DNA from: a virus
Taxonomy: Duplodnaviria > Caudoviricetes
IMG/VR virus record: IMGVR_UViG_3300010282_000007
Span: 6,297 to 70,296 of that record
Reading direction: 5' to 3' (one strand)
DNA: 64,000 nt
Shown: piece after piece, positions 6,001 to 60,307 of the stretch
Layout: every line of letters begins with the position of its first letter
How positions within the stretch are numbered: the stretch's first letter is position 1
Notes under the pieces: model-generated
Seen by the model: the letters and a program-made list of their open reading frames with translations, nothing else
What the model was told of the DNA's origin: nothing
Databases searched by the model: none
Position numbers and translations under genes: made by a program

Positions 6001-8847
6001 CGCAATCAACTTTTCTTGCTGGTTGATAACAGGAGTAATGGCTATTTTTAAGTTGGTAAACCCTGCTATCAATTCGCTGACGGCATGGTTGTCACCAAGT
6101 TTAGCATTGCCAAAAGATGCCATTCTCTCGTAAAAGACTTGCGCCTCTTTTAATGCAGTAGCGGTCTTGGTCATATCCATACCAAGCATTCCACCTCTCT
6201 GACCTGCAACTTCCAACCTATTCATCAAAGCAACCGTTGCTTCCAACGCTTGATTGTAACGACGCTGGTTGGTTTCCATAACCTCCGTTTTCTTGGTGGT
6301 TGTCTTTTCGGTTTTGGAGTTCATCTTCTCCTGCTCTCTCGCAACTTCGCCATATACTGACTTCAGTCGAGAGAATTGCCCAATAAGTTCATTCAAGGCA
6401 CGGAAATTACCCATATCCTTAAACTGCAAGGCTTTCTCAAGGAATTGGAAAACATCGCGCGAACCCACGTTTGTCAATGTTGTACTCAACCCCAAACCAT
6501 GGCTTTTTGAGCCTGCTTCTTCAAGTCTGCGCAAAAGTTTCTCCGTATCGACAAGCATTTGATTGTAACGGCGTTGTGCGGTTTCACGCTCCGAATTGCC
6601 CCATACGTTAGAATCCAAACGCATTTCATTGTTCAATGTTCGCATAGCCTGTGCAGTACCAGTAACAGAATGCGTCAACTTGTCAAAGTGACCGCCAAGC
6701 AAAGTGACATCGTTGCCCATCGCATCCTTGCCAAAAGGAGTAGTCCTTAACGAGCCAACCGTGTTAACGAAATGAATCCATTTTTGGTCGCCTTGATTGA
6801 CAAGATACAATATCTCGGTGATGGATTTCTTCAAGTTTTCCAATCCCTTCAAATTGTCCATTTGGTCTCCACGCAACCTACCCATGCCAAGGACGGGATG
6901 CCCCTCGCCAAAATCAATGCTCTTCTTTGCAATGGCAATCAAACGCTCGATATGCCCCTGCTCCTTGATAAGAGTTTGGATGTTGCTCTTGCCAACACGG
7001 GTAATGCTCTCCATCCAAGGGATGTTTACGCTACCTCCAGCACCCATCGCACTCCTGACTTGGCCAAGAGCGGATGCCACCTTGATAAGTCCTTGCTCTT
7101 CTTGCTTGATTTCCTCATTGCTTTGGCCTGACACGCCTTTCTTTCTTCCACCGCCGCTGCTTTTTGCTGCATTGATAGCAGCCATCGCAGCATTGATTTC
7201 CTTTAGAGCCGCGCCCCATCCCGAAAGGAGGTCTTTCAAGTCTTGATTGCTGCCAATGGTCGCCTTGAACTTGCTGAATGCTTCGGTGAGTTTATTGATG
7301 GCCTCAACGGCATTGTTCACCCTTTCTGTAAACCTTGTGAAACTATCGCCCTTGATGGCCTCCTTGGCTTCAGAAATGTAACTCAAACTTTTTTTCAGGT
7401 CTTCAATGACTGCGGCTCTTATGGTTGCCCCAATTTCCTTTTGGGACATGCCTTGCTGCGCTTGCTTCTCTGCGTTGGCTTGCGCTTGTGAGGCTTGTGT
7501 CAGTTTTTTCTTTGCATGGTAAAGTTCGTTTTCTGCTTCGACCCTTCTTTTAAGGTTGTCGAGTTGTTCTTTTCCGTTTTCTAACTGTGTGTTTTTTGAA
7601 GCAATTTCAGCCTTTCTTAATTGTTGTGCTATAAGCGTTTCATTATAAGTTATGGCTTCTTTGTATCGTTCAATCATATCTTTTGAAGCGGCACCAGCGG
7701 CCAAATCTGCCTTCAATTCTCGATTCCCGTAGATAGCAGATTTTATCTCAGAAATATTAAATCCCAAACCGCTTGTAGTTGGAACTTTGGATAATTTCTG
7801 CTCAAGAGCAACAATTTCCGCTTCGAGTTTTTTTACGTTAGCCGCCGCTTCGGTTGCCGACAACTTAATGTTGTTTATTCCACCAGATTCTTGCTGTGTT
7901 GCCTGCGTTGACTGCTGCGTTATTTGCGCCAACTGCTGTGTTGTTTGAGCTAATTTTTTTTGCGCTGCTTCAAGTTGATTTTTTTTCTCAACTAATTCAG
8001 ACTGCACTTGGGATAGTTGTTTAAACTCGTCGATTTCCCTTCTAAGTTCTCTATGTGAATTGGCCGCATTTGTAACAGAGTCGTAAGCAGATAGTGCCGT
8101 TTTTTTAGAACCTGCTGCTTGAATGCTCGCCAAGGCTGCACGATACTGCTCAAGAGCATATTGAGCCGCTTTATATTCAATGCTATTCTTCTTTGTAGCA
8201 TTTGCAATTTGCTCAAGATTATGTATTTCTTCTTTTATATCAGGAGACCCAAGTCTAAAAGTATTTGCAACGGCTTGTGTAGAAATAGTTTGTTTGAACT
8301 TTTCAATTTCTTTTTTATTCCCATTGGCCATTGCATTTTTTAATTCAGATACAAGTTTATTTGCCGAATCAAAAAAACCAAAATTATCGGATGCAAGATT
8401 CCCAAATTTAACATTCTTAAATGCGTTTGAAAAAACAGAACTTAATTGTTTTTCCAATTCATACTCCCAATGGCGAATGTTTCTAAAAGAAGCCTCCAAT
8501 TCTTTTTCAAGGTCTTTTCCTTGAAATTTAACACCCAACTGAGAAATTCTTTCATAAGTTTTTTGAAGTTTTTCAACTTGCGCATTAAGCGTGTTGACTT
8601 CTTTTTCTTGTTGCTTCAGCGCAGCCGTAGCGGTTTCAACCTCCTTTGCCAACTTCTCGCCAACATTGGAGGTGGGACTATTGCTGCCTTTCAAGGTTTC
8701 AAGCAGATTTGTCAAATCCTTCAGACCCTCAACATTGACTTTGATGTCCTTGTCTTTCAAGTTTTTCAAGGCACTTTCAATCCTGACCAACTCAGCGGAA
8801 GCATGGTCTTCTATGGCTATCCTAAATTTCAATGCGTTTAATGCCAT
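1..8847 (-). CDS. Tail tape measure protein, 3'-truncated by the window edge (>2949 aa)
   Basis: ATG at 8847 (MALNALKFRIAIEDHASAEL). The same frame reads sensibly at every point checked down to base 1. It is absent from the ORF track, consistent with no stop inside the window. Tape-measure-type domain near 4200-4900 (QSPFGVVELDQMTKQLTAYG...NEGGMFYNMQE). Lies directly downstream of the tail chaperone. Confidence 0.9.
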   Translation of the reverse strand, partial: MALNALKFRIAIEDHASAELVRIESALKNLKDKDIKVNVEGLKDLTNLLETLKGSNSPTSNVGEKLAKEVETATAALKQQEKEVNTLNAQVEKLQKTYERISQLGVKFQGKDLEKELEASFRNIRHWEYELEKQLSSVFSNAFKNVKFGNLASDNFGFFDSANKLVSELKNAMANGNKKEIEKFKQTISTQAVANTFRLGSPDIKEEIHNLEQIANATKKNSIEYKAAQYALEQYRAALASIQAAGSKKTALSAYDSVTNAANSHRELRREIDEFKQLSQVQSELVEKKNQLEAAQKKLAQTTQQLAQITQQSTQATQQESGGINNIKLSATEAAANVKKLEAEIVALEQKLSKVPTTSGLGFNISEIKSAIYGNRELKADLAAGAASKDMIERYKEAITYNETLIAQQLRKAEIASKNTQLENGKEQLDNLKRRVEAENELYHAKKKLTQASQAQANAEKQAQQGMSQKEIGATIRAAVIEDLKKSLSYISEAKEAIKGDSFTRFTERVNNAVEAINKLTEAFSKFKATIGSNQDLKDLLSGWGAALKEINAAMAAINAAKSSGGGRKKGVSGQSNEEIKQEEQGLIKVASALGQVRSAMGAGGSVNIPWMESITRVGKSNIQTLIKEQGHIERLIAIAKKSIDFGEGHPVLGMGRLRGDQMDNLKGLENLKKSITEILYLVNQGDQKWIHFVNTVGSLRTTPFGKDAMGNDVTLLGGHFDKLTHSVTGTAQAMRTLNNEMRLDSNVWGNSERETAQRRYNQMLVDTEKLLRRLEEAGSKSHGLGLSTTLTNVGSRDVFQFLEKALQFKDMGNFRALNELIGQFSRLKSVYGEVAREQEKMNSKTEKTTTKKTEVMETNQRRYNQALEATVALMNRLEVAGQRGGMLGMDMTKTATALKEAQVFYERMASFGNAKLGDNHAVSELIAGFTNLKIAITPVINQQEKLIAQREKLLGMSAESYAQGKVNLFSNQNTAEIQKQIDAVGALYTQIQRLEQELARAGMAMQTISPTRWDELVKSGLYKKGVSYEAQMAQFRKEQIYPGDMQQQKTVIQENLERLRSLIGAFKAEGLDVSGFKSQLDALFVTFEKFAALQPIDIGRKLGLEHLRGYTGPQSAADDATWASMKRQAEIQEVAGEAAKKHQRKLEELTNAFAQHDAQLAKSRRVQDGDNKARQQSAETLRKQAQELVKARMELLRSQASDLGGLLSKGKNALGMEQYDAVRNALRSIREEMRQLETAMQRINSYSTKELFSLGRGGAMDYSPLISNTQQLVNAKQQANQATQQLTSEQQRLAQALSQSNEKIRGQSQVLSDLKMLATQYLGVWGAQGFLKNIIEIGGQLEMQRLSIGAILQNQSQANTLFNQIKGLATQSPFGVVELDQMTKQLTAYGFKYHELFDMTKRLADISAATGTSVDRLALALGHVRSEAALSGYTLRQFSMGNVPLLQKLSEKLGKTTKEIRDMVKKKEVSYEDVVGVLKDLTNEGGMFYNMQEVISESVKAKFKNVKDAMDIMYGEMAEGGIGDALKGVANVLMELTRNWKDVATVMASVGGSWVFMRTVTMLYTQTLGAANAQTLASIAAHRQKEAAMLRQASIYRTLTTAERSQLATSKLLTTQERLRMMLGKPLTAQQELRVLYARKQQVADLTLALSQQKVTVETISRMVALKRLTMAEAIQIIKEAQLDAQIKATGYSMLNNTKILSGWRLGLAKTQLALSGFGASLKAFFSWPMLLMTAFTAVIELWQRNSREMEAADELANSIYQHSQEAIKNTRTMMQNNEMSIVNANGKGVNTADLNISNISSAKIKFPEIDKGDMQQTIEEWTTYIENYAVNAGQILNNAFFGADGSLLSLEERFNNLKVAIEEVVLAQYGLQDMDVVFSNAVKATDGGWFDDNVMTDIGNYEKKLKSFGANVATTYRKYQKAIDNGVKAAEKQSETFANATKDMDTYAQKFMFLAKYQEEFSDAWKAFGASADTSDAIDRLNFSLFHTTQDDMQNARAEMVEELDAFYAQVTAEMQTKGVDVNNMTKEQQQALLIGYKQQLESIQGLSEETMRWLMKLFAKHFNIPLNLDDSKFVPKVNETTQILDSLVEGDWTVVIKFAEHINDAIDDARKKYKQAKDYFEKANPILLKFGLSAKIGTKLTEEQIKAAVAKAPEFVREALEKALRGWNEMTDIFNKSSEASKALGFSLEDEKKNKKDIDKKKKDAEKAAKKEEDREIKGWKERIRLLKDARSWYDKWEKEVGHSAALEKVQEMFKGLVSKKDIESLEAYEKALDAVIAKAQARRAKNKGKDERAEEVIRQGEDEKAQIAMLKFQRDSTAFTSDFDKEMEQLTRRWEIFNSVLDATGDKLLAVRMAGFQKGDKDFNARNSADSLRNRLDAAMIFPGLDKTIDFDAVSKMSEEDIDKYVKRLLGGTEYENMIGGIAKGLKEWKKLSDDVIKNDIVGYAQLVGAAVDYGTQIQKNNKDFDERKKMLLSLLAIGKISDEHFDEALSQAAAERDYKNYQLSPGYVELMTNASALTRGQVTNAIEGAMARLNDMYDHNLITLQQYREEVRKLDDVRQNWEKNTLFGKNNGLSSYVNGGVSGLRNWLVGKKELYDASGEQKEADKMQEYIDKLDNVSGKLGDFEFIISLVTGTFDGLQRAATALSTMFDALGKEAQANAWGDLADGISAVSSIFAPASGILQSAQRGDVGGIVSNAIAAPFEMIASPITGFAQLHDKRRERQIDELKHEVEKIDDTLNLIRKSRDRSLGYDKGMYRKMMAAMYAGDRSSSGKAMYEYYMRGSNGETGYAQELEALKTQREEYLKMYDKEKSKKKESKEALEEYKQKMAELDDQIMNYTQDLANELWSIDLKGWADQIGDALMNAFENGTSAALAYENAVSDIMRSVVSQMLKVGIIEPMMENLRERLFGENGAFNYNDPSGSMGAVLSELGRFFGKGGEGEQM

Positions 8848-50807: not shown

Positions 50808-51581
50808 CTAAAATAACTTTTGTTCCTTTAACCTCGCCTTGACGCGTTTCTCGCAAATTTCGTAGTATTTGTCGGAAAGTTCAATTCCTATCCAATCGCG
50901 CTTTTCGTCTATTGCGGCGATTATTGTACTGCCGCTACCTGCAAACGTGTCAAGCACCAATTCCCCTTCGTTTGAATAAGTCTTTATCAGCCACCTTAAC
51001 AATGGGACTGGCTTTGCCGTACTATGCAGCCAATCTTCACTATTATGGCCTTTGGCAAAAGTGATTATCGTTCCAGGGTACTTGTAATCAGACATAACCA
51101 CTTCCGCTTTTCCAAACTTTCCGTAACAAGTGTTCGTCTGCGCTCCCTCTTGTTTCCCTCGGCTATGATTCCTTTGGTGTGGTCCGGCATAAACCATTTG
51201 AGGGTTGTATGTCGGCAACTTCTTGTAGAACACCAGCACTTGCTCATGCTGTCGCATCGGCATGCGCTTGCAGTTGAGGAAATTTGACTTTCGGACTTTG
51301 TTCCACACAATATCGTATTTATACCAACTTGGGTTGCTCATTATCAACTTGGCGGCGAACAGACCTTGGCCGAAAAGGAGTATCGCACCATTTGGCTTGA
51401 CAATGCGCTTGTATTGTTTCCACAACGCTTTCAAGTCAACCTCCTTGTCCCATTGTGCATCGGGATTGCTCTTGTTAAGCGTATTGTACGGAGGGTCTGC
51501 AAGCACAAGGTCAACGCTATGGTCAGGTATCTCCCTCATGATTTCAAGGCAATCTCCTTTGTATAGTTTGTTTCTTTCCAT
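50808..51581 (-). CDS. N4C/N6A DNA methyltransferase, beta class (MTase 5), 257 aa
   Basis: DPPY before HSTAKP and LDTFAGSGS. Confidence 0.92.
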   Translation of the reverse strand: MERNKLYKGDCLEIMREIPDHSVDLVLADPPYNTLNKSNPDAQWDKEVDLKALWKQYKRIVKPNGAILLFGQGLFAAKLIMSNPSWYKYDIVWNKVRKSNFLNCKRMPMRQHEQVLVFYKKLPTYNPQMVYAGPHQRNHSRGKQEGAQTNTCYGKFGKAEVVMSDYKYPGTIITFAKGHNSEDWLHSTAKPVPLLRWLIKTYSNEGELVLDTFAGSGSTIIAAIDEKRDWIGIELSDKYYEICEKRVKARLKEQKLF

Positions 51582-51591
51582 TATTTAAAAC

Positions 51592-52155
51592 TTAAAATAA
51601 TGTCAGTTGTCGTTTCTCTTCCTTTATTCGCTTGCATGCTTTTTCGTAGTATTCTTTGTTGAGTTCAAATGACCATTCAAGCCCGCAAGCCTTTTTCTTT
51701 CTTCCGTGTAAGCACGAAGAAATGTTATTCAAAGAAACACCAAAAGCATTTGCTGCTTGAGTAATACTATCAAATGACTCTACTAATATTCCATCTTTAA
51801 AGGCATAAACTTTCTTTCGGTGTTTCTTTGCGATTTTTTCTCTATTTCCATTGTAATTAAGATTGTAAGATGGGCTACACCATTCTAAATTCCAAACTGC
51901 ATTGTTTTGTTTATCTTCATCTTTATGATTTATTAGGTGTTTACCTTCTTCTTTTGGAATAAATGCCAACGCTACAAGCCTATGCACCCTTAACTGTTTA
52001 CCATGAAGAGAAACAAAAAAATATCCTTTTCTGTCAACACAAGGAGTCAATATTTTCTCTATGCCAGTCTTATTGAAAGATAGGCTCTTGATATTACCAT
52101 AGTTTGATACCATATACCCACTATGACCGTCTATTACTTTCCATTCTTCTTTCAT
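51592..52155 (-). CDS. NUMOD4-HNH-NUMOD1 homing endonuclease, 187 aa
   Basis: EEWKVIDG..YMVSNYG, RVHRLVALAF, NHKDEDKQNNAVWNLEW, ESFDSITQAA. AT-rich. Its C-terminus resembles an MTase tail. Confidence 0.9.
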   Translation of the reverse strand: MKEEWKVIDGHSGYMVSNYGNIKSLSFNKTGIEKILTPCVDRKGYFFVSLHGKQLRVHRLVALAFIPKEEGKHLINHKDEDKQNNAVWNLEWCSPSYNLNYNGNREKIAKKHRKKVYAFKDGILVESFDSITQAANAFGVSLNNISSCLHGRKKKACGLEWSFELNKEYYEKACKRIKEEKRQLTLF

Positions 52156-52918
52156 TTGAAATCAAGTGTTAGTTGAGATTTTTCAATTTCTATTCTTTTA
52201 AGTGCTTTCTTATAATACTCTTCATTAAGTTCAAAACCAACGAAATGACGCTTTTCTTTCAAGCAAGCGATAGCAGTTGTTCCTGACCCAATACAGTTGT
52301 CAAGTACGACATTACCTTTGTTTGTGAATGTCCTGACAAGATAACGCACCAAGTCAAGAGGTTTTTGAGTTGGATGAATGACATTCCCATCATCACGCCC
52401 TTTCGTAAAACACACAATGGACGTTGGAAATTTTTCGTCTGCGATTACAGGTTGTGTCTGCGCATATTCGTTGTAGCATCTATTTGCCCCCCCTTACCAT
52501 GGTTTCGATAATGTGGTTCGCTTGGCATCATTTGTGGGTTATATGTTGGTAAAGACTTGTAAAACACGCAGATGTCTTCGTGTCTTCTTAGCGGCATGCG
52601 CCTTGCATTAAGAAATCCCGTAGGCCACAATTTATCCCAAATGATGTTGTATCTCCACCAACTTCTATTGCTTTGCATAAGGTCTGCGGTGAACATTCCT
52701 TGGGAGAATAGGATAATGGCCGCGTTATCCTTAACGACACGCTTATACTGCTCCCAAAGTGGCTCGAAAGGTATTACTACATCCCATTTTGCATGAATGT
52801 TGCCTTTCCCAAGAACCCCATACGGCAAATCGCAAATGATAGCGTCTATGCTACCATCCGGGATTTTCCGCATACCAACAAGACAATCCTCATTGTAGAT
52901 GGTGTCGAGTTCAATCAT
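52152..52918 (-). pseudogene. Beta-class amino-MTase (MTase 4) frameshifted at a G7 tract, possibly phase-OFF
   Basis: DLPY half (52445-52918) and HPTQKP/LDNCIGSG half join if G7 (52487-52493) becomes G8: ...KGGANRCYNEYAQTQPVIADEKFPTSIV. Confidence 0.85.
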
Positions 52919-53627
52919 TAAACAAATCTCCTTGCCTATAAGTGTTTTTTATACGTTTCGCGCAAACATCATGAAACTTTTCGTCAATCTCAAATCCAAC
53001 GTAGTTGCGCCCGGTGTTTATACAGGCGATAGCGGTTGTTCCACTACCCATAAATGGGTCGAGAACAGTTTCTCCTTTGTTCGTGCTATTCTTGATAAGG
53101 AACTGGAATAAAGGTACTGGTTTTGCGGAATCGTGCAAGTTTGCTCCGCTTTTGTCTTTTGGTTTGACATTTGGAATGCTGATTACATCCGAAGAGCCAC
53201 ATTCGTTGATTGGACGCGCTTTGCCCTTTCTAAGAAATAGGATGTACTCAAATTGGTTCATGTAGAAAGCACCCATTATCTTTTGCCCCTTTTCCCAAAT
53301 CAGACATTTCACGAAATGGAATTTACTTTCATCTATCACTTTCAGGAAATGTGTCAGATTGACATGATTGCACATGATGTAACAATGCGTTCCGTCCTTC
53401 AGCACGCGATAGAACTCAGGCAAGTAGTCTTCAATGTTGATGTCGTTATGTTTGAATATTTTGCCTTTTAGCGAAAGTTCGGTGCGCATCATCCCACCGC
53501 TATTGCCAGCGTTTCCGCGAGAGGTTATCTTGTATGGTGGGTCGGTCACTATGCAGTCGATGCTTTCATCGGGAATGTCCTTCATTCCAACCAGACAGTC
53601 GGTGTTGAGTATTTTATTTAGTTCCAT
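52911..53627 (-). CDS. N4C/N6A DNA methyltransferase, beta class (MTase 3), 238 aa
   Basis: DPPY, HDSAKP, LDPFMGSG. Confidence 0.92.
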   Translation of the reverse strand: MELNKILNTDCLVGMKDIPDESIDCIVTDPPYKITSRGNAGNSGGMMRTELSLKGKIFKHNDINIEDYLPEFYRVLKDGTHCYIMCNHVNLTHFLKVIDESKFHFVKCLIWEKGQKIMGAFYMNQFEYILFLRKGKARPINECGSSDVISIPNVKPKDKSGANLHDSAKPVPLFQFLIKNSTNKGETVLDPFMGSGTTAIACINTGRNYVGFEIDEKFHDVCAKRIKNTYRQGDLFND

Positions 53628-53633
53628 TGTTTT

Positions 53634-54413
53634 TCAAAATAATTTCGGTTGTTGCAGTTCCTCCTTTACACGCTTGCAAGCAATGTCATAATACTTCTTC
53701 TCCTTTTCAATACAGATAAAATGTCGCTTCTCCCTTATGCAGGCCACGGCGAGGCTTCCACTTCCACAGCAGTTATCTAAAATAGTGTCTTGCTTATCCG
53801 TGTATGTCAGCACAAGGTAGCGAAGCAAGTCAACGGGTTTCTGCGTTGGGTGATACCCCCCCCTGTCACGGTTGAAACGCAGAATGTTTGTCGGGTATCT
53901 TTCGCCTTCGTTTACGGTAACGTGGCCGCATACGCTTGGAGAGCGACTCATCACGGCATACGCTGCATTCCTCTTGTTGCCGTTCTTGCATACATACGGC
54001 TTGCCCTTCGTCTTCTGTGGGTTGTACTTCATTTTTATGCCATTTGGAGAGTACGAAATTCCGCCGTAACTGAACACCGCAATGTCCTCCGTCTTTTTAA
54101 GAGGGCAGTAGTTCGCATTGACAAAGTTCGTCCCCATTTCCTTTTCCCAAATCCAGTTGTATTTCCACATCTTTATGTTTGAGGAAATAAGGTAGGTTGT
54201 GAAAGGCTGTTGGCAGAATAGTACGATTGCGCCGTTTGGCTTGATTATACGGGTGTAAGCGTCCCATAGCGGCTCGAATGGAATGGCGCAGTCCCATTTC
54301 ATTCCGGTAGTGTTGTAGGGAAGGTCGCAGATGATGGCATCAATGCTTTCGTCAGGTATCTCCCGCATCAACTCCAAGCAATCGCCGTGGTGTATCTTGT
54401 CTAACTCAATCAT
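53634..54413 (-). CDS. N4C/N6A DNA methyltransferase, beta class (MTase 2), 259 aa, in-frame G8 tract
   Basis: DLPY, HPTQKP, LDNCCGSG; AGG GGG GGG at 53856-53863. Confidence 0.92.
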   Translation of the reverse strand: MIELDKIHHGDCLELMREIPDESIDAIICDLPYNTTGMKWDCAIPFEPLWDAYTRIIKPNGAIVLFCQQPFTTYLISSNIKMWKYNWIWEKEMGTNFVNANYCPLKKTEDIAVFSYGGISYSPNGIKMKYNPQKTKGKPYVCKNGNKRNAAYAVMSRSPSVCGHVTVNEGERYPTNILRFNRDRGGYHPTQKPVDLLRYLVLTYTDKQDTILDNCCGSGSLAVACIREKRHFICIEKEKKYYDIACKRVKEELQQPKLF

Positions 54414-54414
54414 T

Positions 54415-55110
54415 TCAGAATAACTTTAATTGTTTGGCAGTTGTTCCGTCTTTCATACCGACAATTCCGAAACACTCTTTCACGAAACGTTCGCAACCTT
54501 GGTCGTAATATTCTTTGTCTATCTCGCAGCCGACAAAATCGAACCCCAACTTGTAGGCAGCTATTCGGCTGCTGCCGCTTCCAAGCATAGGGTCAAAGAT
54601 GTTGTCGCCGGACTTTGCGAAATTGTTAAGCAAGTATGCGTATAGTTCAACAGGCTTTTGAGTCGGATGTATCTTACCACCTCGCCTGTTGTCATACTTG
54701 AAAAGTTTCGCTGGCTTGTCAAAACTCGTCCAAGCATACTCGCATTGTGAAAAGTTCGGCCATGGTTGCACCTTGTCCCAACATACAAAACAACGTGTCG
54801 GCGGCAAGTCAAAATAGTTTCCTCCCCAAATGATTACATTCTCGCAAACTCTGAAAAGTTCGTCAAAGAACTCCCTGGGAGGTGTCTTGTCCCATTGAGA
54901 AAACTTGCCTGCAGATTGGTTGAGTATTCTTCCTCTCAACTTCCCCGCGCCTTTGTATGAAGATTTGCGCTTGTCTATTTGTCGTGTGCCTATTTGATAC
55001 GGAGGGTCTGCGATGCCAAGCGAAAATTCCTTGTCTTTGCAACCTCTCATAAACTCAAGGCAGTCGATGTTGTAAACTTGGCTTGAAGGTTTAATCTTCT
55101 TCTCCATCAA
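54415..55110 (-). CDS. N4C/N6A DNA methyltransferase, beta class (MTase 1), 231 aa
   Basis: DPPY, HPTQKP, FDPMLGSGS. Confidence 0.92.
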   Translation of the reverse strand: MMEKKIKPSSQVYNIDCLEFMRGCKDKEFSLGIADPPYQIGTRQIDKRKSSYKGAGKLRGRILNQSAGKFSQWDKTPPREFFDELFRVCENVIIWGGNYFDLPPTRCFVCWDKVQPWPNFSQCEYAWTSFDKPAKLFKYDNRRGGKIHPTQKPVELYAYLLNNFAKSGDNIFDPMLGSGSSRIAAYKLGFDFVGCEIDKEYYDQGCERFVKECFGIVGMKDGTTAKQLKLF

Positions 55111-55551
55111 TTACTTGATAATTAAACGCTTCCAACTTTCCGACGCATTCTCAAAATGAAGACCATTCCGGGGAGTGCCACTATTGATTGCATTCCAAAG
55201 CGATTTATGGGACAACCCCAAATGGTCGCAGCACTCTCTAATGGAACTATACACCTTTCCAGTCTCAACGCACAAGACAGGACGCTCCCAATACTTTTTC
55301 GGTCTTGTCCTTACCGATGCCGCCAAATCAGCAGGAAGTTCTATCACATCCTTGCAACGCTGCTCTGACTGCGTGATTTCACTTTCAACATGCTTGTCGG
55401 GATATTGCTCGAAAGAACGCATGTCAAACACGCAAATCTCGCAATCCTTGTAAAACGCCCTCACCGTCGCAAGGTCATCAAGTGTTTCGGCAAAGTACAA
55501 GTTCGCATTCTTGCCATTCACGAAAACAGACACAAAATAGTTATTCTTCAT
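55111..55551 (-). CDS. NUMOD1/IENR1-like DNA-binding protein, 146 aa
   Basis: RPVLCVETGKVYSSIRECCDHLG. Confidence 0.6.
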   Translation of the reverse strand: MKNNYFVSVFVNGKNANLYFAETLDDLATVRAFYKDCEICVFDMRSFEQYPDKHVESEITQSEQRCKDVIELPADLAASVRTRPKKYWERPVLCVETGKVYSSIRECCDHLGLSHKSLWNAINSGTPRNGLHFENASESWKRLIIK

Positions 55552-55777
55552 CGAAAGTCAATGTTAATGTTAGTTTCAATGGCTCGTCCTCCCATTTCAT
55601 AGGAGGGAGGTTTAAGCCGAAAGTCTCCATCCAAGCGACGGTGGAGGAAATAAAGCCGTACATCCTTCCCTCCCAAACGCGCCATTCCTCATTGCGAACA
55701 GGACGGCCAAGAAACACGCAGCATTGGCCGCTACCATTGGCCGCATAGTATAGTTCGGTGACAACTCCCATACTCAC
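55541..55777 (-). CDS. Hypothetical protein, 78 aa
   Basis: ORF with overlaps on both sides. Confidence 0.6.
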   Translation of the reverse strand: MSMGVVTELYYAANGSGQCCVFLGRPVRNEEWRVWEGRMYGFISSTVAWMETFGLNLPPMKWEDEPLKLTLTLTFDEE

Positions 55778-56223
55778 TTCCCTGTCGAGCCGTAGCCATT
55801 CTTGCCGCGATTTGTGTCGGACAATTCGTCAACCTCCACAAACACGATGCCTTCGGTAAATCCAATCTTCAACTGGCCGATGCGGTCGCCAACCTCGTAT
55901 TTGGGCATATCGGGGAAAACATGGTAGAATACTCCAGACACCTCGCCCCTATATCCTTCATCAATAGTGCTAATGCAATTAGCGAGTACCATTCCCGTCT
56001 TCCATATTGACGAACGTGGCCTTATGTCAATGCTCAAGTCAACTTCCATTTCCTCACAAAGTTCATCCCTTTGTATCTCAAAGGCAAGTCCAATCCCATA
56101 CTTCCATACGTTCGGCGCAATTTCCTCGCACGATGTCGCAACAACATCGTAGCAAAAATCATCGTTGTGCGCTTTCTTTGGAATGACTGCATCGGGATGC
56201 AGTTTCTTTATCTTTACTATCAT
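55774..56223 (-). CDS. dut: Trimeric dUTPase, 149 aa
   Basis: YDV, RPRSS, TIDEGYRGE, RIGQL, RGKNGYGSTG motifs. Confidence 0.95.
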   Translation of the reverse strand: MIVKIKKLHPDAVIPKKAHNDDFCYDVVATSCEEIAPNVWKYGIGLAFEIQRDELCEEMEVDLSIDIRPRSSIWKTGMVLANCISTIDEGYRGEVSGVFYHVFPDMPKYEVGDRIGQLKIGFTEGIVFVEVDELSDTNRGKNGYGSTGK

Positions 56224-56317
56224 TTCTTTTTTTTGTTAATCGTTAATGATGATAAGAAAACCCCATGCCGACACATTGACATCGGCAAGGGGCAACCAAA
56301 ACAAATAATGAAAAATA

Positions 56318-56797
56318 CTATTCTTCTTTTTCAAGATGTTTGCCAAACTCCAAAACGTCGCAAATCTTCGTCTTTACGATGTCTGCAATTTCGTAGTCTT
56401 CGGTGGTGAACTGATAAACCGCATCGATGATTGCCTTTCGCGCCTCCTCAACGCTTGCAGCCTGGACGAGGTGGTAGTGCGATTTCACCTTCGTCTTCAT
56501 TCCGCTGCGTGTTTCAGTAATCTCCGGGATGCAGACCTTGACCTTGAAGAAACTTTCGGCATCCGTATTCTCGTTGAAACACACCGTGCCGTACTTCGGC
56601 CTTGACATCGCCGTTACCTTGACGGGGCGGTTGGCATACTCCATTTCCTTTGTAATTCTCGTTTCTCCGTCAATGAACGTCGCAGCCTCAACCACGTACT
56701 TCTCTTTTTTCTCTTTCAACACTCCGTTCTCGTTGATTTCGTCAAAGGCTATGGTTACTTCAAACCAAAAACCGCTTCTGTTTCTAAGATGTTCCAT
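56318..56797 (-). CDS. DUF4494-like protein, 159 aa
   Basis: WFEVTI...KEKYVVEAATFIDGETRI and FFKVKV...HLVQAASVEEA duplicated-domain pattern typical of Bacteroidetes. Confidence 0.65.
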   Translation of the reverse strand: MEHLRNRSGFWFEVTIAFDEINENGVLKEKKEKYVVEAATFIDGETRITKEMEYANRPVKVTAMSRPKYGTVCFNENTDAESFFKVKVCIPEITETRSGMKTKVKSHYHLVQAASVEEARKAIIDAVYQFTTEDYEIADIVKTKICDVLEFGKHLEKEE

Positions 56798-56835
56798 TTC
56801 TTTTTAATGATTAAGTAAAACTATTGTAGTTGTTG

Positions 56836-57387
56836 TTAAAACAGCGTAAGTTGAACTGGTTTCCCCTTTTCAATATCCATGTCCTTCTCCACATATAGTT
56901 TTCTGAACATGTGGTACATCGGGGAAACGACAATACTGTTGCCTGCAAGGCGATAGTGTGAACTGTTTGAAAGCGGACTTCCAAGCAGCGTGTTTATGTC
57001 GTTTTCGCCAACATTCATCAGTCTGTAACATTCCCTTGGGGTCAACTTCCTTATCCGCATGGCAACAGGCGTGATGTCCTCGTAGAACTGAATAAGTGCT
57101 TTCCTCTGCCAGTCGAACGGCATTTGCATTTGGTCTTTCACCTTGTCGAGCAGTTCCTTCAGCCTTCCGCTTGGCTTCCATTCGTCGAAAATGGCACAAA
57201 GTCCGCTGACAATCTTGTCGGGTATCTCTGCACGTTCTTCTTTGCTATTTCGCAACTTGTTAAGTTCCGGGAAGACTATCTTGAACACTTTCAGGCATTC
57301 GTCTTGGGTGTGTTCCTTCCCATAAAGTTTTCTGCAAGCACGATAAACCACACGCACTTGCTTATGAAAATCTCTTTTATGTTTCAT
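56836..57387 (-). CDS. C5-cytosine MTase C-terminal part (helical insert plus motifs IX-X), 183 aa
   Basis: RIRKLTPRECYRLM (IX), YRLAGNSIVV (X); ends QLTLF. Confidence 0.9.
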   Translation of the reverse strand: MKHKRDFHKQVRVVYRACRKLYGKEHTQDECLKVFKIVFPELNKLRNSKEERAEIPDKIVSGLCAIFDEWKPSGRLKELLDKVKDQMQMPFDWQRKALIQFYEDITPVAMRIRKLTPRECYRLMNVGENDINTLLGSPLSNSSHYRLAGNSIVVSPMYHMFRKLYVEKDMDIEKGKPVQLTLF

Positions 57388-57529
57388 ATATCTCGATTAT
57401 TGTTGTCATCGTTGCACCATCGGTTCTTAGCAATGTTGCTCCGCCAAACTTGTAGCAACCTGCAAGAATTGTCTTTGAAACTTTTAATTTTTCAGAAGTG
57501 TCGTAGTTGTGGAATTTAATGCGTTTCAT
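57377..57529 (-). CDS. TRD-like mini-ORF M14, 50 aa
   Basis: MKRIKFHNYDTSEKLKVSKTILAGCYKFGGATLLRTDGATMTTIIEIYET. Confidence 0.7.
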   Translation of the reverse strand: MKRIKFHNYDTSEKLKVSKTILAGCYKFGGATLLRTDGATMTTIIEIYET

Positions 57530-57710
57530 AGACTTCTGCGCATAGATTGTCTTTGGTTGCTGCGGTTGTCACAGTACTCATTACCGGACCGACAAGCACA
57601 CCGTATTTCCCTTTGGAGTAAGTCGCTCCTACATCGCCGTATAAGTGCCGTCTAAGCCGTTCTTCTGCGGTTCTCGCCCTTGCCACGCATAGAGCGTTAA
57701 TACGTTTCAT
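57516..57710 (-). CDS. TRD-like mini-ORF M13, 64 aa
   Basis: MKRINALCVARART...PVMSTVTTAATKDNLCAEVYETH. Confidence 0.7.
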   Translation of the reverse strand: MKRINALCVARARTAEERLRRHLYGDVGATYSKGKYGVLVGPVMSTVTTAATKDNLCAEVYETH

Positions 57711-57894
57711 AACAATCAAGGTAAAGCAAATGTGCCATATTTGTTGCTTGAATTGCAGGCGAAACAAAGCGTGTCACTCTTGTTCGCCGTGTGTTGCTAT
57801 TTGGAAATGAATTGTCAAGAATTGTTCCTACCTCCCACAACTGACATCTTCCGTTTGGAAGCCGTATGAGAAAACCTTCCCTCTTATGTTTCAT
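57697..57894 (-). CDS. TRD-like mini-ORF M12, 65 aa
   Basis: ...DNSFPNSNTRRTRVTRFVSPAIQATNMAHLLYLDCYETY; resembles the SYPNSKTRRGRV unit seen in C5-MTase variable regions. Confidence 0.75.
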   Translation of the reverse strand: MKHKREGFLIRLPNGRCQLWEVGTILDNSFPNSNTRRTRVTRFVSPAIQATNMAHLLYLDCYETY

Positions 57895-58039
57895 AAACAC
57901 AAGAAATGTATGAAGAGTTATATCCTGAAACCTTGCTGCAACCACCAAGCGTAGCAGAAATGCCGTCTGTTGAATACAATCGGCCAGCCATCGAACGATG
58001 CTCCCAACCAAATACAAAGCCTATCCTCTTAATCTTCAT
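57884..58039 (-). CDS. TRD-like mini-ORF M11, 51 aa
   Basis: MKIKRIGFVFGWEHRSMAGRLYSTDGISATLGGCSKVSGYNSSYISCVYET. Confidence 0.75.
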   Translation of the reverse strand: MKIKRIGFVFGWEHRSMAGRLYSTDGISATLGGCSKVSGYNSSYISCVYET

Positions 58040-58181
58040 AGACAATCCTTACTATTGGGCGCATAGAGCCGCTATGCGCAGAAGATTCCGTCAAGCAGTT
58101 GCATACTATCATTGGATGGTAATTGCGAATATTCCCCTTTTCGTCCCTTGACCATCCATAAAGCAACAACTTACGTTTCAT
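58029..58181 (-). CDS. TRD-like mini-ORF M10, 50 aa
   Basis: MKRKLLLYGWSRDEKGNIRNYHPMIVCNCLTESSAHSGSMRPIVRIVYED. Confidence 0.7.
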   Translation of the reverse strand: MKRKLLLYGWSRDEKGNIRNYHPMIVCNCLTESSAHSGSMRPIVRIVYED

Positions 58182-58326
58182 ACGCCACCTTTATTCTTGG
58201 CTCAACGCCCGAATGGCAACCAACACTAATGCACGGCGACACTCCCTTTGTGTCAATAACCCATCCGTTTTGCTTGCTACACCAAACATAGCCGACAATT
58301 AATATTTGCGTTGATTTATTTCTCAT
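58171..58326 (-). CDS. TRD-like mini-ORF M9, 51 aa
   Basis: MRNKSTQILIVGYVWCSKQNGWVIDTKGVSPCISVGCHSGVEPRIKVAYET. Confidence 0.75.
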   Translation of the reverse strand: MRNKSTQILIVGYVWCSKQNGWVIDTKGVSPCISVGCHSGVEPRIKVAYET

Positions 58327-58481
58327 AGATGTGAATTGCTCCTGTGGTGCCCCAATCATTAGTGTACTGGAAATTGATGCGGCCTGTCTTGTAATAGTTG
58401 GCTTTGATTGTCCTGCAAGTGCCATCGTTTTTGGTGTTGCAACCAATAAGCCGTATGGGGGGGGGTAGATTTAACGCTCAT
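58316..58481 (-). CDS. TRD-like mini-ORF M8, out of frame at C9 (in frame with C8 or C11)
   Basis: MSVKST-(C9)-IRLIGCNTKNDGTCRTIKANYYKTGRINFQYTNDWGTTGAIHIYEK; 166 nt. Confidence 0.7.
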
Positions 58482-58620
58482 AGATTACTCCAATGAATTG
58501 GTCGGTAGTAAAGCCGCTACCCGTGAACGTATGAATGACATTTGCTATATCCTTTGGATGATAGTTCAATATCTCACCCTTCTTGTTGTCACGGGTGTAG
58601 CCGTAAAGGATCCGTCTCAT
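58471..58620 (-). CDS. TRD-like mini-ORF M7, 49 aa
   Basis: MRRILYGYTRDNKKGEILNYHPKDIANVIHTFTGSGFTTDQFIGVIYER. Confidence 0.7.
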   Translation of the reverse strand: MRRILYGYTRDNKKGEILNYHPKDIANVIHTFTGSGFTTDQFIGVIYER

Positions 58621-58747
58621 ATATCTCAATTACAAGGATGGGGTCTTTGAAATCACGCGCCCTTAACGTAGGAGAATATAACGATGAAATTCTAAACTCG
58701 CCGTATGTGCTACGTGGGTTTGGCAAAACCATTTTCTCATGTCTCAT
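58589..58747 (-). CDS. TRD-like mini-ORF M6, 52 aa
   Basis: MRHEKMVLPNPRSTYGEFRISSLYSPTLRARDFKDPILVIEIYETDPLRLHP. Confidence 0.75.
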   Translation of the reverse strand: MRHEKMVLPNPRSTYGEFRISSLYSPTLRARDFKDPILVIEIYETDPLRLHP

Positions 58748-58910
58748 AAACTTGTGTGACAAATTTGTTGCCATCGTCGTATCTTGCCGTTATCGTGATG
58801 TGCAAGCCGATGTGCCATTGCTGGTTGTAACAGTCAAGGCATATACCGCTAACGAAAGGCACACCGCTTTCAATGAGAGACCTTACCCTCTCACCTCCTT
58901 TAAGTTTCAT
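58737..58910 (-). CDS. TRD-like mini-ORF M5, 57 aa
   Basis: MKLKGGERVRSLIESGVPFVSGICLDCYNQQWHIGLHITITARYDDGNKFVTQVYET. Confidence 0.75.
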   Translation of the reverse strand: MKLKGGERVRSLIESGVPFVSGICLDCYNQQWHIGLHITITARYDDGNKFVTQVYET

Positions 58911-59082
58911 ACGCTTTCGTTACAAAATACATGCAATTTGCGTCTATCCTCGCTTTGATTGTACCTGAAACAGAAATATTGTAGATTTGATTGTACGTGT
59001 CGAGCCATACGCCGCTCTTAAATGGAATGCCGCTTTCAATAAGTGAAGCGAGGCGTTTGCCTCCTGTTGGTTTATTCTTCAT
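58900..59082 (-). CDS. TRD-like mini-ORF M4, 60 aa
   Basis: MKNKPTGGKRLASLIESGIPFKSGVWLDTYNQIYNISVSGTIKARIDANCMYFVTKAYET. Confidence 0.75.
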   Translation of the reverse strand: MKNKPTGGKRLASLIESGIPFKSGVWLDTYNQIYNISVSGTIKARIDANCMYFVTKAYET

Positions 59083-59239
59083 ACAACAATGCTATTTTAG
59101 GCGAGTTGCAACTTCCAACACCTCTTCCACGAATGCCCTGCCCTGACCTCAATGTTGGCGATAGGCCATCTGGTGAGAAAACGTCACCATTTTGGCCATC
59201 GCTTGGGAATACATTGCCCAAACGGATAATTCTACACAT
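59072..59239 (-). CDS. TRD-like mini-ORF M3, 55 aa
   Basis: MCRIIRLGNVFPSDGQNGDVFSPDGLSPTLRSGQGIRGRGVGSCNSPKIALLYEE; TAATG overlap start. Confidence 0.75.
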   Translation of the reverse strand: MCRIIRLGNVFPSDGQNGDVFSPDGLSPTLRSGQGIRGRGVGSCNSPKIALLYEE

Positions 59240-59408
59240 TATGTTTCATAGACAACCCCGATACCCATCTTCGGATAATGCGCTACGCTTATCAAATTTG
59301 CCGCTCCGATTACCTCGTAAACGGCGGTGATTGTCGGAGCAAGGCCGTCTTTTGTAACTGGCAGTCCTATAAGTCGTTGAGGGGGGGGGGCAGCTTACGT
59401 TGTTTCAT
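59239..59408 (-). CDS. TRD-like mini-ORF M2, out of frame at C10 (in frame with C8 or C11)
   Basis: MKQRKL-(C10)-QRLIGLPVTKDGLAPTITAVYEVIGAANLISVAHYPKMGIGVVYET; 170 nt. Confidence 0.7.
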
Positions 59409-59418
59409 AAATATAGCA

Positions 59419-59559
59419 CTATGCGCTTTTAGGGTAATGGCGAAGAGTGATGTAGTCCCTTATCGCAGCATCTTCGTATCGCGTGTTCAAAGTGCAAGCA
59501 ATACCACCCGAACAAACATTCTGCGGAACAATCCTACTGGGCAACAAAGAAGTTCTCAA
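59419..59559 (-). CDS. TRD-like mini-ORF M1, 46 aa (TTG start; TAG four codons before the expected YET)
   Basis: MRTSLLPSRIVPQNVCSGGIACTLNTRYEDAAIRDYITLRHYPKSA*CYIYETT*. Confidence 0.55.
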   Translation of the reverse strand: MRTSLLPSRIVPQNVCSGGIACTLNTRYEDAAIRDYITLRHYPKSA

Positions 59560-60307
59560 AATCCTCTTCGTCTTCTTCGTCAAAATCATTCTCTGAAGAT
59601 GCAGACCTCCCATCTTCCTCAATGCTCTTTTCGCAAAACCTTGCAAGCATTTCGTCGGACAAGAAATACTTTTCGTCAACTTCCTCTTCCAAAACATCAT
59701 TCAAACAAAGTTCCAACGGCATTTTCTTTGGGAAGAAATATCTTGGGTTTTGTTCGTCTTCAGTTATGAGAATGGAAATCATGTATATCCGTTCTCTATT
59801 TTGAGGAACGTTGAAATCAGAGGCATTCAGTACCTGGGCAAAATTTACATATCCGAAACCCTCAAGCCGCCTTTGCCAGGCGTTAAAACCTTTGATGAAC
59901 TTTTGCTGAACAAGTCCTTTTACATTCTCAAAGAAGACGTACTTAGGACGCTTTAACTCTATGGCTCTCGAACACTCCCATAAGAGCGAAGAACGCGTTC
60001 CGCTACCCTCTTCTCCACCACGCTGGAGGCCAGCATTGCTGAAGTCCTGGCAGGGCGAACTCATTGTAAAAAAGTCAAAATCAGGAACTTTGCCCCAATC
60101 AATCTTGCTGATGTCACCATAGTTTTCAACGTCACCATGTAACGCTTTGTAAGCGGTAATCGCACTTGGGTCAATCTCGCTGAAGCCAATCAATTTGTAG
60201 TCAAATTCAGGAAAGTCGCGTTTCAGCCTCTCCAAAGCAAGGCTTTGACTGCCATAGCCAGCAAAAGCCTCAAATACCCTTAATGGATTGTTTTTGTCGT
60301 ATTTCAT
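59534..60307 (-). CDS. C5-cytosine MTase catalytic N-terminal part (motifs I-VIII), 257 aa
   Basis: FAGYG (I), SSPCQDFS (IV), ENVKGL (VI), VPQNRERIY (VIII). Ends in an acidic tail with no TRD or motifs IX-X. Confidence 0.92.
   Translation of the reverse strand: MKYDKNNPLRVFEAFAGYGSQSLALERLKRDFPEFDYKLIGFSEIDPSAITAYKALHGDVENYGDISKIDWGKVPDFDFFTMSSPCQDFSNAGLQRGGEEGSGTRSSLLWECSRAIELKRPKYVFFENVKGLVQQKFIKGFNAWQRRLEGFGYVNFAQVLNASDFNVPQNRERIYMISILITEDEQNPRYFFPKKMPLELCLNDVLEEEVDEKYFLSDEMLARFCEKSIEEDGRSASSENDFDEEDEEDFENFFVAQ

Follow-up and report, generated by a model that had tools for sequence, protein, structure and literature searches.

The stretch of DNA analysed here, referred to as the window, comprises 64,000 nucleotides (bases 6297-70296) of IMG/VR record IMGVR_UViG_3300010282_000007, which is 70.3 kb in length and rated 67% complete. 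Portal, major-head and primase/helicase genes in the window identify the source as a tailed phage, an uncultured one of gut or rumen type. A methylation island at 50808-60307 consists of two blocks, one of N6/N4 methyltransferases (PF01555) and one of a C5 methyltransferase (PF00145) encoded in pieces, and four open reading frames (ORFs) of the island contain long homopolymer tracts of G or C. All genes of the island are located on the minus strand, and the tracts are quoted on the coding strand unless otherwise stated. Tract lengths that keep a gene in frame are referred to as ON, and those that break the frame as OFF.

Four G/C tracts in the methylation genes

A scan of the plus strand of the window detected four G/C runs of at least seven bases, C7 at 52487-52493, C8 at 53856-53863, G9 at 58457-58465 and G10 at 59381-59390, corresponding to G7, G8, C9 and C10 on the coding strand, in agreement with the positions and lengths given in an original prediction made from the sequence of the window. 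That prediction also held that the window contains no other run of this length, which is correct and can be extended to the whole record: the window has three runs of six, and no run of six or longer occurs in the 6.3 kb of the record outside the window. All four tracts are located inside methylation genes, within 7 kb. Based on 300 first-order Markov simulations of the window, 0.24 runs of at least 8 were expected by chance against 3 observed, 0.06 runs of at least 9 against 2, and 0.007 runs of at least 10 against 1. Codon use gives the same picture. GGG represents 13.5% of the Gly codons and CCC 17% of the Pro codons, and the spelling GGG-GGG was found in 2 of 52 Gly-Gly pairs within long ORFs, both being methyltransferase tracts. 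Contingency loci are characterized by slippage-prone repeats inside ORFs, in excess of the expectation from base composition and codon use, and both features are present here, in four ORFs. The island was also scanned for repeats of other types, and none was found.

Five N6/N4 methyltransferases of the PF01555 family, MT1 to MT5, are encoded in the island, two of them with a tract. MT4 (52152-52918) is read in two frames meeting at the G7 tract (52487-52493), which breaks the frame at about codon 143 of 254; a single added G joins both pieces. When read with G8, MT4 is a protein of 254 amino acids, collinear with its relatives and keeping the DPPY-type, HPTQKP and GSGTT motifs. Natural counterparts of the OFF genes were searched for among about 5.8 billion metagenome proteins. 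For MT4, this search identified P0030 (253 amino acids), which shares 93.7% identity with MT4 read with G8, the junction being identical letter for letter. For this protein, and for the other ON alleles described below (P0001, P0003 and P0026), the tract length was deduced from the protein sequence. MT2 (53634-54413; 259 amino acids; PF01555, E 3.6e-28) is intact, its tract (53856-53863) being at the in-frame length of G8 and encoding Gly-Gly immediately upstream of the HPTQKP motif. The frame analysis agrees with the states originally assigned to these two genes, MT4 being OFF with G7 and restored by G8, and MT2 being ON with G8. The other three methyltransferases, MT1 (54415-55110), MT3 (52911-53627) and MT5 (50808-51581), are intact and carry no tract.

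Between MT4 and MT5 is located a gene for a homing-type endonuclease (HNH/NUMOD; 51592-52157), the start of which overlaps the MT4 stop. The C-terminus of MT4 differs from the Gln-Leu-Thr-Leu-Phe end of P0030, as if the HNH insertion had altered its last residues. A QL-x-LF-like ending is common to most methyltransferases of the island.

A C5 methyltransferase in pieces

The C5 methyltransferase is divided among separate ORFs. The N-part (59534-60307) carries motifs I-VIII, matching PF00145 at positions 2-214 of 324 (E 1.4e-50), and ends in an acidic tail, while the C-part (56836-57387; 183 amino acids) carries motifs IX-X, matching positions 269-322 of 324. Located at 57377-59544 is an array of 14 short ORFs, M1 to M14, of about 50-65 codons each. 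From M2 to M14, each mini-gene starts with an ATG of its own, positioned at the end of the cassette before it or within that end; each cassette closes with a stop codon, usually after a Tyr-Glu-Thr-like end, and the next one starts in another frame.

Among the 14 cassettes, tracts are present only in M2 and M8. In M8 (58316-58481; 54 amino acids when in frame), the C9 tract (58457-58465) is located 16 nucleotides after the ATG, and in M2 (59239-59408; 55-56 amino acids when in frame), the C10 tract (59381-59390) is located 18 nucleotides after the ATG. Both tracts place the bodies of the modules out of frame, and C8 or C11 restores the frame in both cases, exactly as originally claimed. No alternative downstream start in the frame of the module was found for either gene. 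Natural ON alleles were identified for both. Two proteins of 54 amino acids, P0001 and P0003, are 92.6% and 87% identical, respectively, to M8 read with C8; within the first eight residues, P0003 is identical to M8 and P0001 has one substitution, the same start running straight into the module. Likewise, P0026 (55 amino acids) is 84% identical to M2 read with C11. In two other proteins of the M8 type, the run is interrupted (P0153) or absent (P0002).

The mini-genes evolve as protein-coding genes. In relatives, the ratio of nonsynonymous to synonymous substitution rates (dN/dS) is 0.03-0.08 over 1,652 pairs for the M3-type module and 0.13 for another type, and the start codons and stop/start overlaps are conserved. 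Because of this low dN/dS and these conserved starts and overlaps, the mini-genes are, as judged from sequence evolution, real genes under strong purifying selection in their own frames. M1 (59422-59544), a module of the M2 type, is probably a dead copy, since it has no ATG (possibly using a TTG start) and is interrupted in frame by a TAG located five codons upstream of the customary Tyr-Glu-Thr ending.

Two other ways of reading the broken frames of the array were considered. The cassettes might be joined by +1 ribosomal frameshifting, or by hopping at their conserved ends; this reading was not adopted, because the starts and overlaps are conserved, the tracts are located just after the starts and the same small proteins are gene-called elsewhere. 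Reassignment of TAG, TGA or TAA left no sign in the ORF lengths and was rejected as the cause of the broken frames.

A profile of the M8-type module detected 254 clusters among 1.84 billion representatives, most of them being free-standing proteins of 40-130 amino acids. P0274 is a complete PF00145 enzyme on a single chain, in which the module lies between motifs VIII and IX (residues 196-231). In P0163, P0174, P0187 and P0188, it is fused to C-parts, and in P0291 to an N-part. Since the module is embedded in single-chain PF00145 enzymes and fused to C-parts or to an N-part, the M8 module is assigned by its context as a target-recognising domain (TRD). The M8-type TRD is thus used in cis and, apparently, also in trans.

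The pieces themselves show further features. The tail of the N-part (59534-59620) is strongly acidic, and nearly every mini-gene and the C-part start with a basic sequence, Met-Lys/Arg-x-Lys/Arg; the acidic tail and the basic starts may form a docking pair. The C-part contains about 95 extra residues N-terminal to motif IX, which the C-parts of the examined relatives lack. A dUTPase-like ORF (PF00692, weak match) is located at 55774-56223, between the C5 and N6/N4 blocks.

Tract lengths in related phages

Tract lengths were compared using two sets of metagenome assemblies, 80 contigs with a C5 N-part 54-66% identical to that of the island and 80 viral contigs with MT4 homologues. Among the MT4 homologues, 66 sense-strand G runs of at least seven were detected against 3 C runs. 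They range from G7 to G11, and about 28 are ON and 38 OFF, these counts being approximate as they follow from a crude longest-open-frame rule. At the best-sampled site, alleles that share their flanking peptides are ON with G8 and OFF with G7 or G9. Two contigs from different samples, L123 (G9, OFF) and L129 (G8, ON), share 3,003 identical flanking bases. In the out-of-frame homologues, the downstream frame stays open to the normal stop. The tracts are not confined to one site of the enzyme, being found in homologous N6/N4 enzymes in the HGKGG loop, before HPTQKP or before GSGTT.

The 80 C5 contigs contain 60 sense-strand G runs of at least seven and no C run. Within the 71 C5 contigs in which both motifs were located, 50 of the 53 tracts are positioned between motifs VIII and X, a region representing 7.7% of the sequence. 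One C5 tract, common to 35 contigs, gives a complete module in 13 cases, a truncated module in 13 and a reading into the next (M8-type) module in 9, and contigs without this run encode the same residues with mixed codons. A second C5 tract is in frame in 14 contigs (G7) and out of frame in 9 (G8 or G6). Both sets together contain 126 sense-strand G runs versus 3 C runs, more than 120 tracts in about 160 loci, and all three frames were observed at the same positions in the same gene classes across about 150 independent contigs. The pattern of tracts is thus frequent in the viral contigs examined. M1-M14 is the largest module array among the loci examined, and its modules carry sense-strand poly-C instead of poly-G.

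Poly-C tracts at the same positions as those of M8 and M2 were found in a few related IMG/VR contigs. For the M8-type module, the tract is C9 and ON in L184, C7 and OFF in L185, and C8 and ON in L186, L184 and L185 being 98.6% identical over 3,081 nucleotides. For the M2-type module, it is C10 and ON in L187 and L188, C8 and OFF in L189, and C8 in L186. The cassette after the M2-type one carries a G run in relatives, which is off with G8 and on with G9. Differences in length between near-identical genomes are thus present in relatives, at the same or analogous positions (L123/L129, L184/L185 and L188/L189). Comparison of tract lengths across related genomes had been proposed together with the original prediction, and the lengths do vary, both ON and OFF alleles being found at runs of these kinds. 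Because related contigs differ in length and state at the same kinds of tract, these tracts are apparently hypermutable.

The locus itself has few close neighbours in the databases. The 12-kb locus gave no match to GenBank phages by megablast, and a degenerate DNA pattern for the M8 start and its tract gave no match in IMG/VR. A metagenome scan with the central gene of the island detected only relatives of 54-55% identity, the 20-kb loci of which contain no G/C run of seven or longer and, as judged from their ORF maps, apparently no C5 array.

Several of the related loci show arrangements of their own. In relatives, genes with a PAPS-reductase domain (PF01507) adjoin the methyltransferases and carry one or two poly-G tracts of ON or OFF length (L143, 4236-5210; L127, 4138-5136; also L135, L138, L142, L146 and L157). 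The closest IMG/VR relative of the C5 N-part (L002, 66%) has three G8-G9 tracts at 6736, 6992 and 7220, the first at the very end of the N-part, where a change in length would make the N-part read on into either of two short modules that resemble each other. L190 (2489-3502) encodes a C5 methyltransferase in circularly permuted order, in which motifs I-VIII follow an M8-type module and motifs IX-X, with an in-frame G8 just after the module. L191 (899-2905) encodes a single-chain C5 methyltransferase with an intein (PF14890, Hint) at the catalytic Pro-Cys and an M8-type module in the variable region. In L192 (2337-5041), a rumen-type viral contig, 14 G/C runs of 7-10 are clustered within 2.7 kb around an M8-type module.

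Probable phase variation of phage methylation

Based on these findings, the four runs are likely to be contingency tracts, at which slippage drives phase variation. The original claim that the tracts gate reading frames is shown to be correct by the sequence of the four genes, and intact alleles with the predicted junctions exist in nature (P0030 for MT4, P0001 and P0003 for M8, and P0026 for M2), a change in tract length converting a gene between readable and unreadable forms in the frame analysis as well as among natural alleles. Slipped-strand mispairing during replication of the phage DNA would add or remove one G:C pair, and each change in length would shift the downstream codons into or out of frame, constituting a heritable and reversible switch of one gene. 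Two of the tracts would switch whole orphan N6/N4 methyltransferases, MT4 being off and MT2 on in this record, and the other two would switch single recognition modules of the split C5 enzyme, M2 and M8, both being off. Phage lineages would then leave cells with different sets of methylated motifs, spreading the risk between hosts with restriction enzymes that are blocked by methylation and hosts with methylation-dependent nucleases. We infer that the tracts switch within the population of the source phage itself, that the switching is of adaptive benefit, and that a module, the N-part and the C-part assemble into an active enzyme. The number of 16 states, given in the original prediction, represents only the arithmetic of four binary switches.

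Some observations weigh against phase variation. The consensus shows three tracts OFF and only one ON, a distribution that is also compatible with loss of function. Some of the length differences between the comparator assemblies could be assembly artefacts. No relative with more than 90% DNA identity to the locus was found by megablast against GenBank phages, in IMG/VR or in the metagenome scan, and no comparator with a tract at the same position as that of MT2 was found among the relatives. In addition, a genome with an altered tract would be methylated by the enzymes of the cell in which it is produced, so that the phenotype would lag one infection cycle behind the genotype.

The OFF state of the three genes might also be explained without switching. 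One such explanation is plain decay, in which mutational hot spots would have inactivated methyltransferases that are no longer needed. Three OFF tracts out of four would fit this, M1 with its in-frame stop looks dead, and more distant relatives lack the locus, a variable island. However, the OFF genes have no second lesion and match intact natural alleles over the full length, and in the OFF alleles of relatives the frame beyond the tract likewise remains open up to the usual stop. The tracts arose independently at several positions in homologous genes, their spelling with rare GGG and CCC codons suggests that mutability was selected for, and ON and OFF alleles coexist among near-identical genomes. 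Decay of this kind is therefore improbable. Errors of sequencing or assembly would create the same appearance if the true lengths were in frame (G8, C8 or C11) and the contig miscounted its G/C homopolymers. The record is a metagenome-derived virus contig, each of the three frame-breaking tracts is 1-2 bases off an in-frame length, and on most sequencing platforms no class of sequence is more error-prone than G/C homopolymers of 9-10. Against this, A/T runs of 7-8 are read without frameshift in an ORF of 2,949 amino acids and in other genes; because they leave the 2,949-residue ORF unbroken, the assembly is not generally prone to homopolymer errors. G7 is short for a consensus error, and miscounting leaves unexplained the confinement of the runs to methylation genes, against codon use, as well as the three frames seen at the same positions in the independent contigs. 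We consider such an error very unlikely.

In a third explanation, the genomic length is fixed and the genes are expressed at low level by programmed recoding, either ribosomal frameshifting or slippage of RNA polymerase. M8 would suit this mode, as it needs exactly a +1 shift, for instance if tRNA-Pro slipped on the C run; consecutive CCC codons are known to favour +1 shifts, and poly-proline stalls ribosomes. M2 and MT4, however, would need a −1 shift, and no stimulatory structure was noticed, although none was specifically looked for. Recoding also predicts a conserved genomic length, whereas the relatives vary in length, in-frame lengths are common among them and the intact natural alleles are already in frame. 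Recoding appears quite unlikely to account for the broken frames; it may add leakiness on top of switching at the DNA level.

Switching of methylation by slippage is known from other systems. In bacteria, phase-variable methyltransferases controlled by simple-sequence repeats (phasevarions) are well established, including Type III mod, some Type I hsdM/hsdS and Type IIG genes of Haemophilus, Neisseria, Helicobacter and Campylobacter (PMC4889913, PMC13076061). The phage locus resembles phasevarions in that a repeat within a methyltransferase ORF would switch the methylation of a motif by a change of frame, several switches giving combinatorial methylomes. Unlike those methyltransferases that form part of a restriction-modification system, the enzymes of the island are phage-borne orphan proteins of PF01555 and PF00145, with no endonuclease domain of a restriction system detected in the neighbouring ORFs: searches of these against Pfam and PHROGs gave no restriction-enzyme match, the sole nuclease-family match nearby being the homing-type HNH endonuclease. 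The likely payoff is also different, protection of virion DNA rather than control of a bacterial regulon, and two of the switches act on separate mini-genes for recognition modules, not on the enzyme. Choice of the expressed recognition domain is likewise the basis of phase-variable specificity in Type I hsdS shufflons (epigenetic invertons), in which a recombinase drives inversion between hsdS copies (PMC7672463); in contrast, the choice is made here by frame switching at homopolymers.

Contingency tracts are also known in phages. Poly-G tracts in receptor-binding and other genes of Campylobacter phages (Fletchervirus) are cited from Sorensen et al. (2021, Cell Rep 35:109214) in a study dealing with contingency loci of T2/T4 (bioRxiv 10.1101/2025.10.21.683753). 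These loci share with the present one the hypermutable homopolymers in phage genes, from which heritable and reversible subpopulations arise as a bet-hedge. The bioRxiv study does not describe arrays of switched methylation genes; with reference to Liu et al. 2004, it briefly notes that a methylase gene of the Bordetella phage it calls 'BBP-1' contains a poly-G tract, which it states was not studied further.

As to the C5 enzyme, the multispecific enzymes of Bacillus phages, M.SPRI, M.Phi3TI, M.Rho11sI and M.H2I, carry several modules in the region separating motif VIII from motif IX, a single specificity being ascribed to each of them. The present enzyme is likewise a phage C5 methyltransferase with several target-recognising modules, around which motifs I-VIII and IX-X are arranged. 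The Bacillus phage enzymes are, however, single polypeptides with fixed modules, while here the modules and the two motif blocks are not on one polypeptide, the modules being encoded by 14 overlapping ORFs, two of them slippery, and the core by two ORFs. Motifs I-VIII and IX-X are located on separate polypeptides, split in the variable region, in the same way as in M.AquI. Assembly of C5 enzymes from separate polypeptides is known for the natural enzymes M.AquI and M.EcoHK31I and for complementing fragments of M.SssI (PMC3404938). Those enzymes consist of two fixed subunits, whereas at least three kinds of piece would be needed here, with interchangeable modules. No description of such a three-piece C5 enzyme with interchangeable modules was found in the searchable literature, and for phages of the gut or rumen the literature searched likewise gave no report of methyltransferase arrays or recognition modules that are switched.

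Taken as a whole, the findings support the original interpretation: DNA methylation probably differs between lineages of the phage, as a hedge against the restriction systems of its hosts. A wider proposal, plausible but held more tentatively, is that of a modular and switchable system, present in the source phage and in many gut and rumen phages, in which free-standing modules of about 55 amino acids would dock in trans on a split C5 core, and each module or accompanying methyltransferase may carry its own switch. If true, one genome would hold a large repertoire of heritable and reversible methylation patterns, a phage counterpart of the phasevarion in which single recognition domains are switched. 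It may then become possible to test the specificity of C5 recognition modules one by one. For annotation, methyltransferase genes that appear 'broken' in viromes may be switched off rather than dead. Phage methyltransferases are usually treated as fixed tools against restriction. If methyltransferases and modules are switched by slippage, the host range within a phage population would be heterogeneous and fast-changing, which bears on the coexistence of gut and rumen phages with Bacteroidales-type hosts that vary their own restriction systems.

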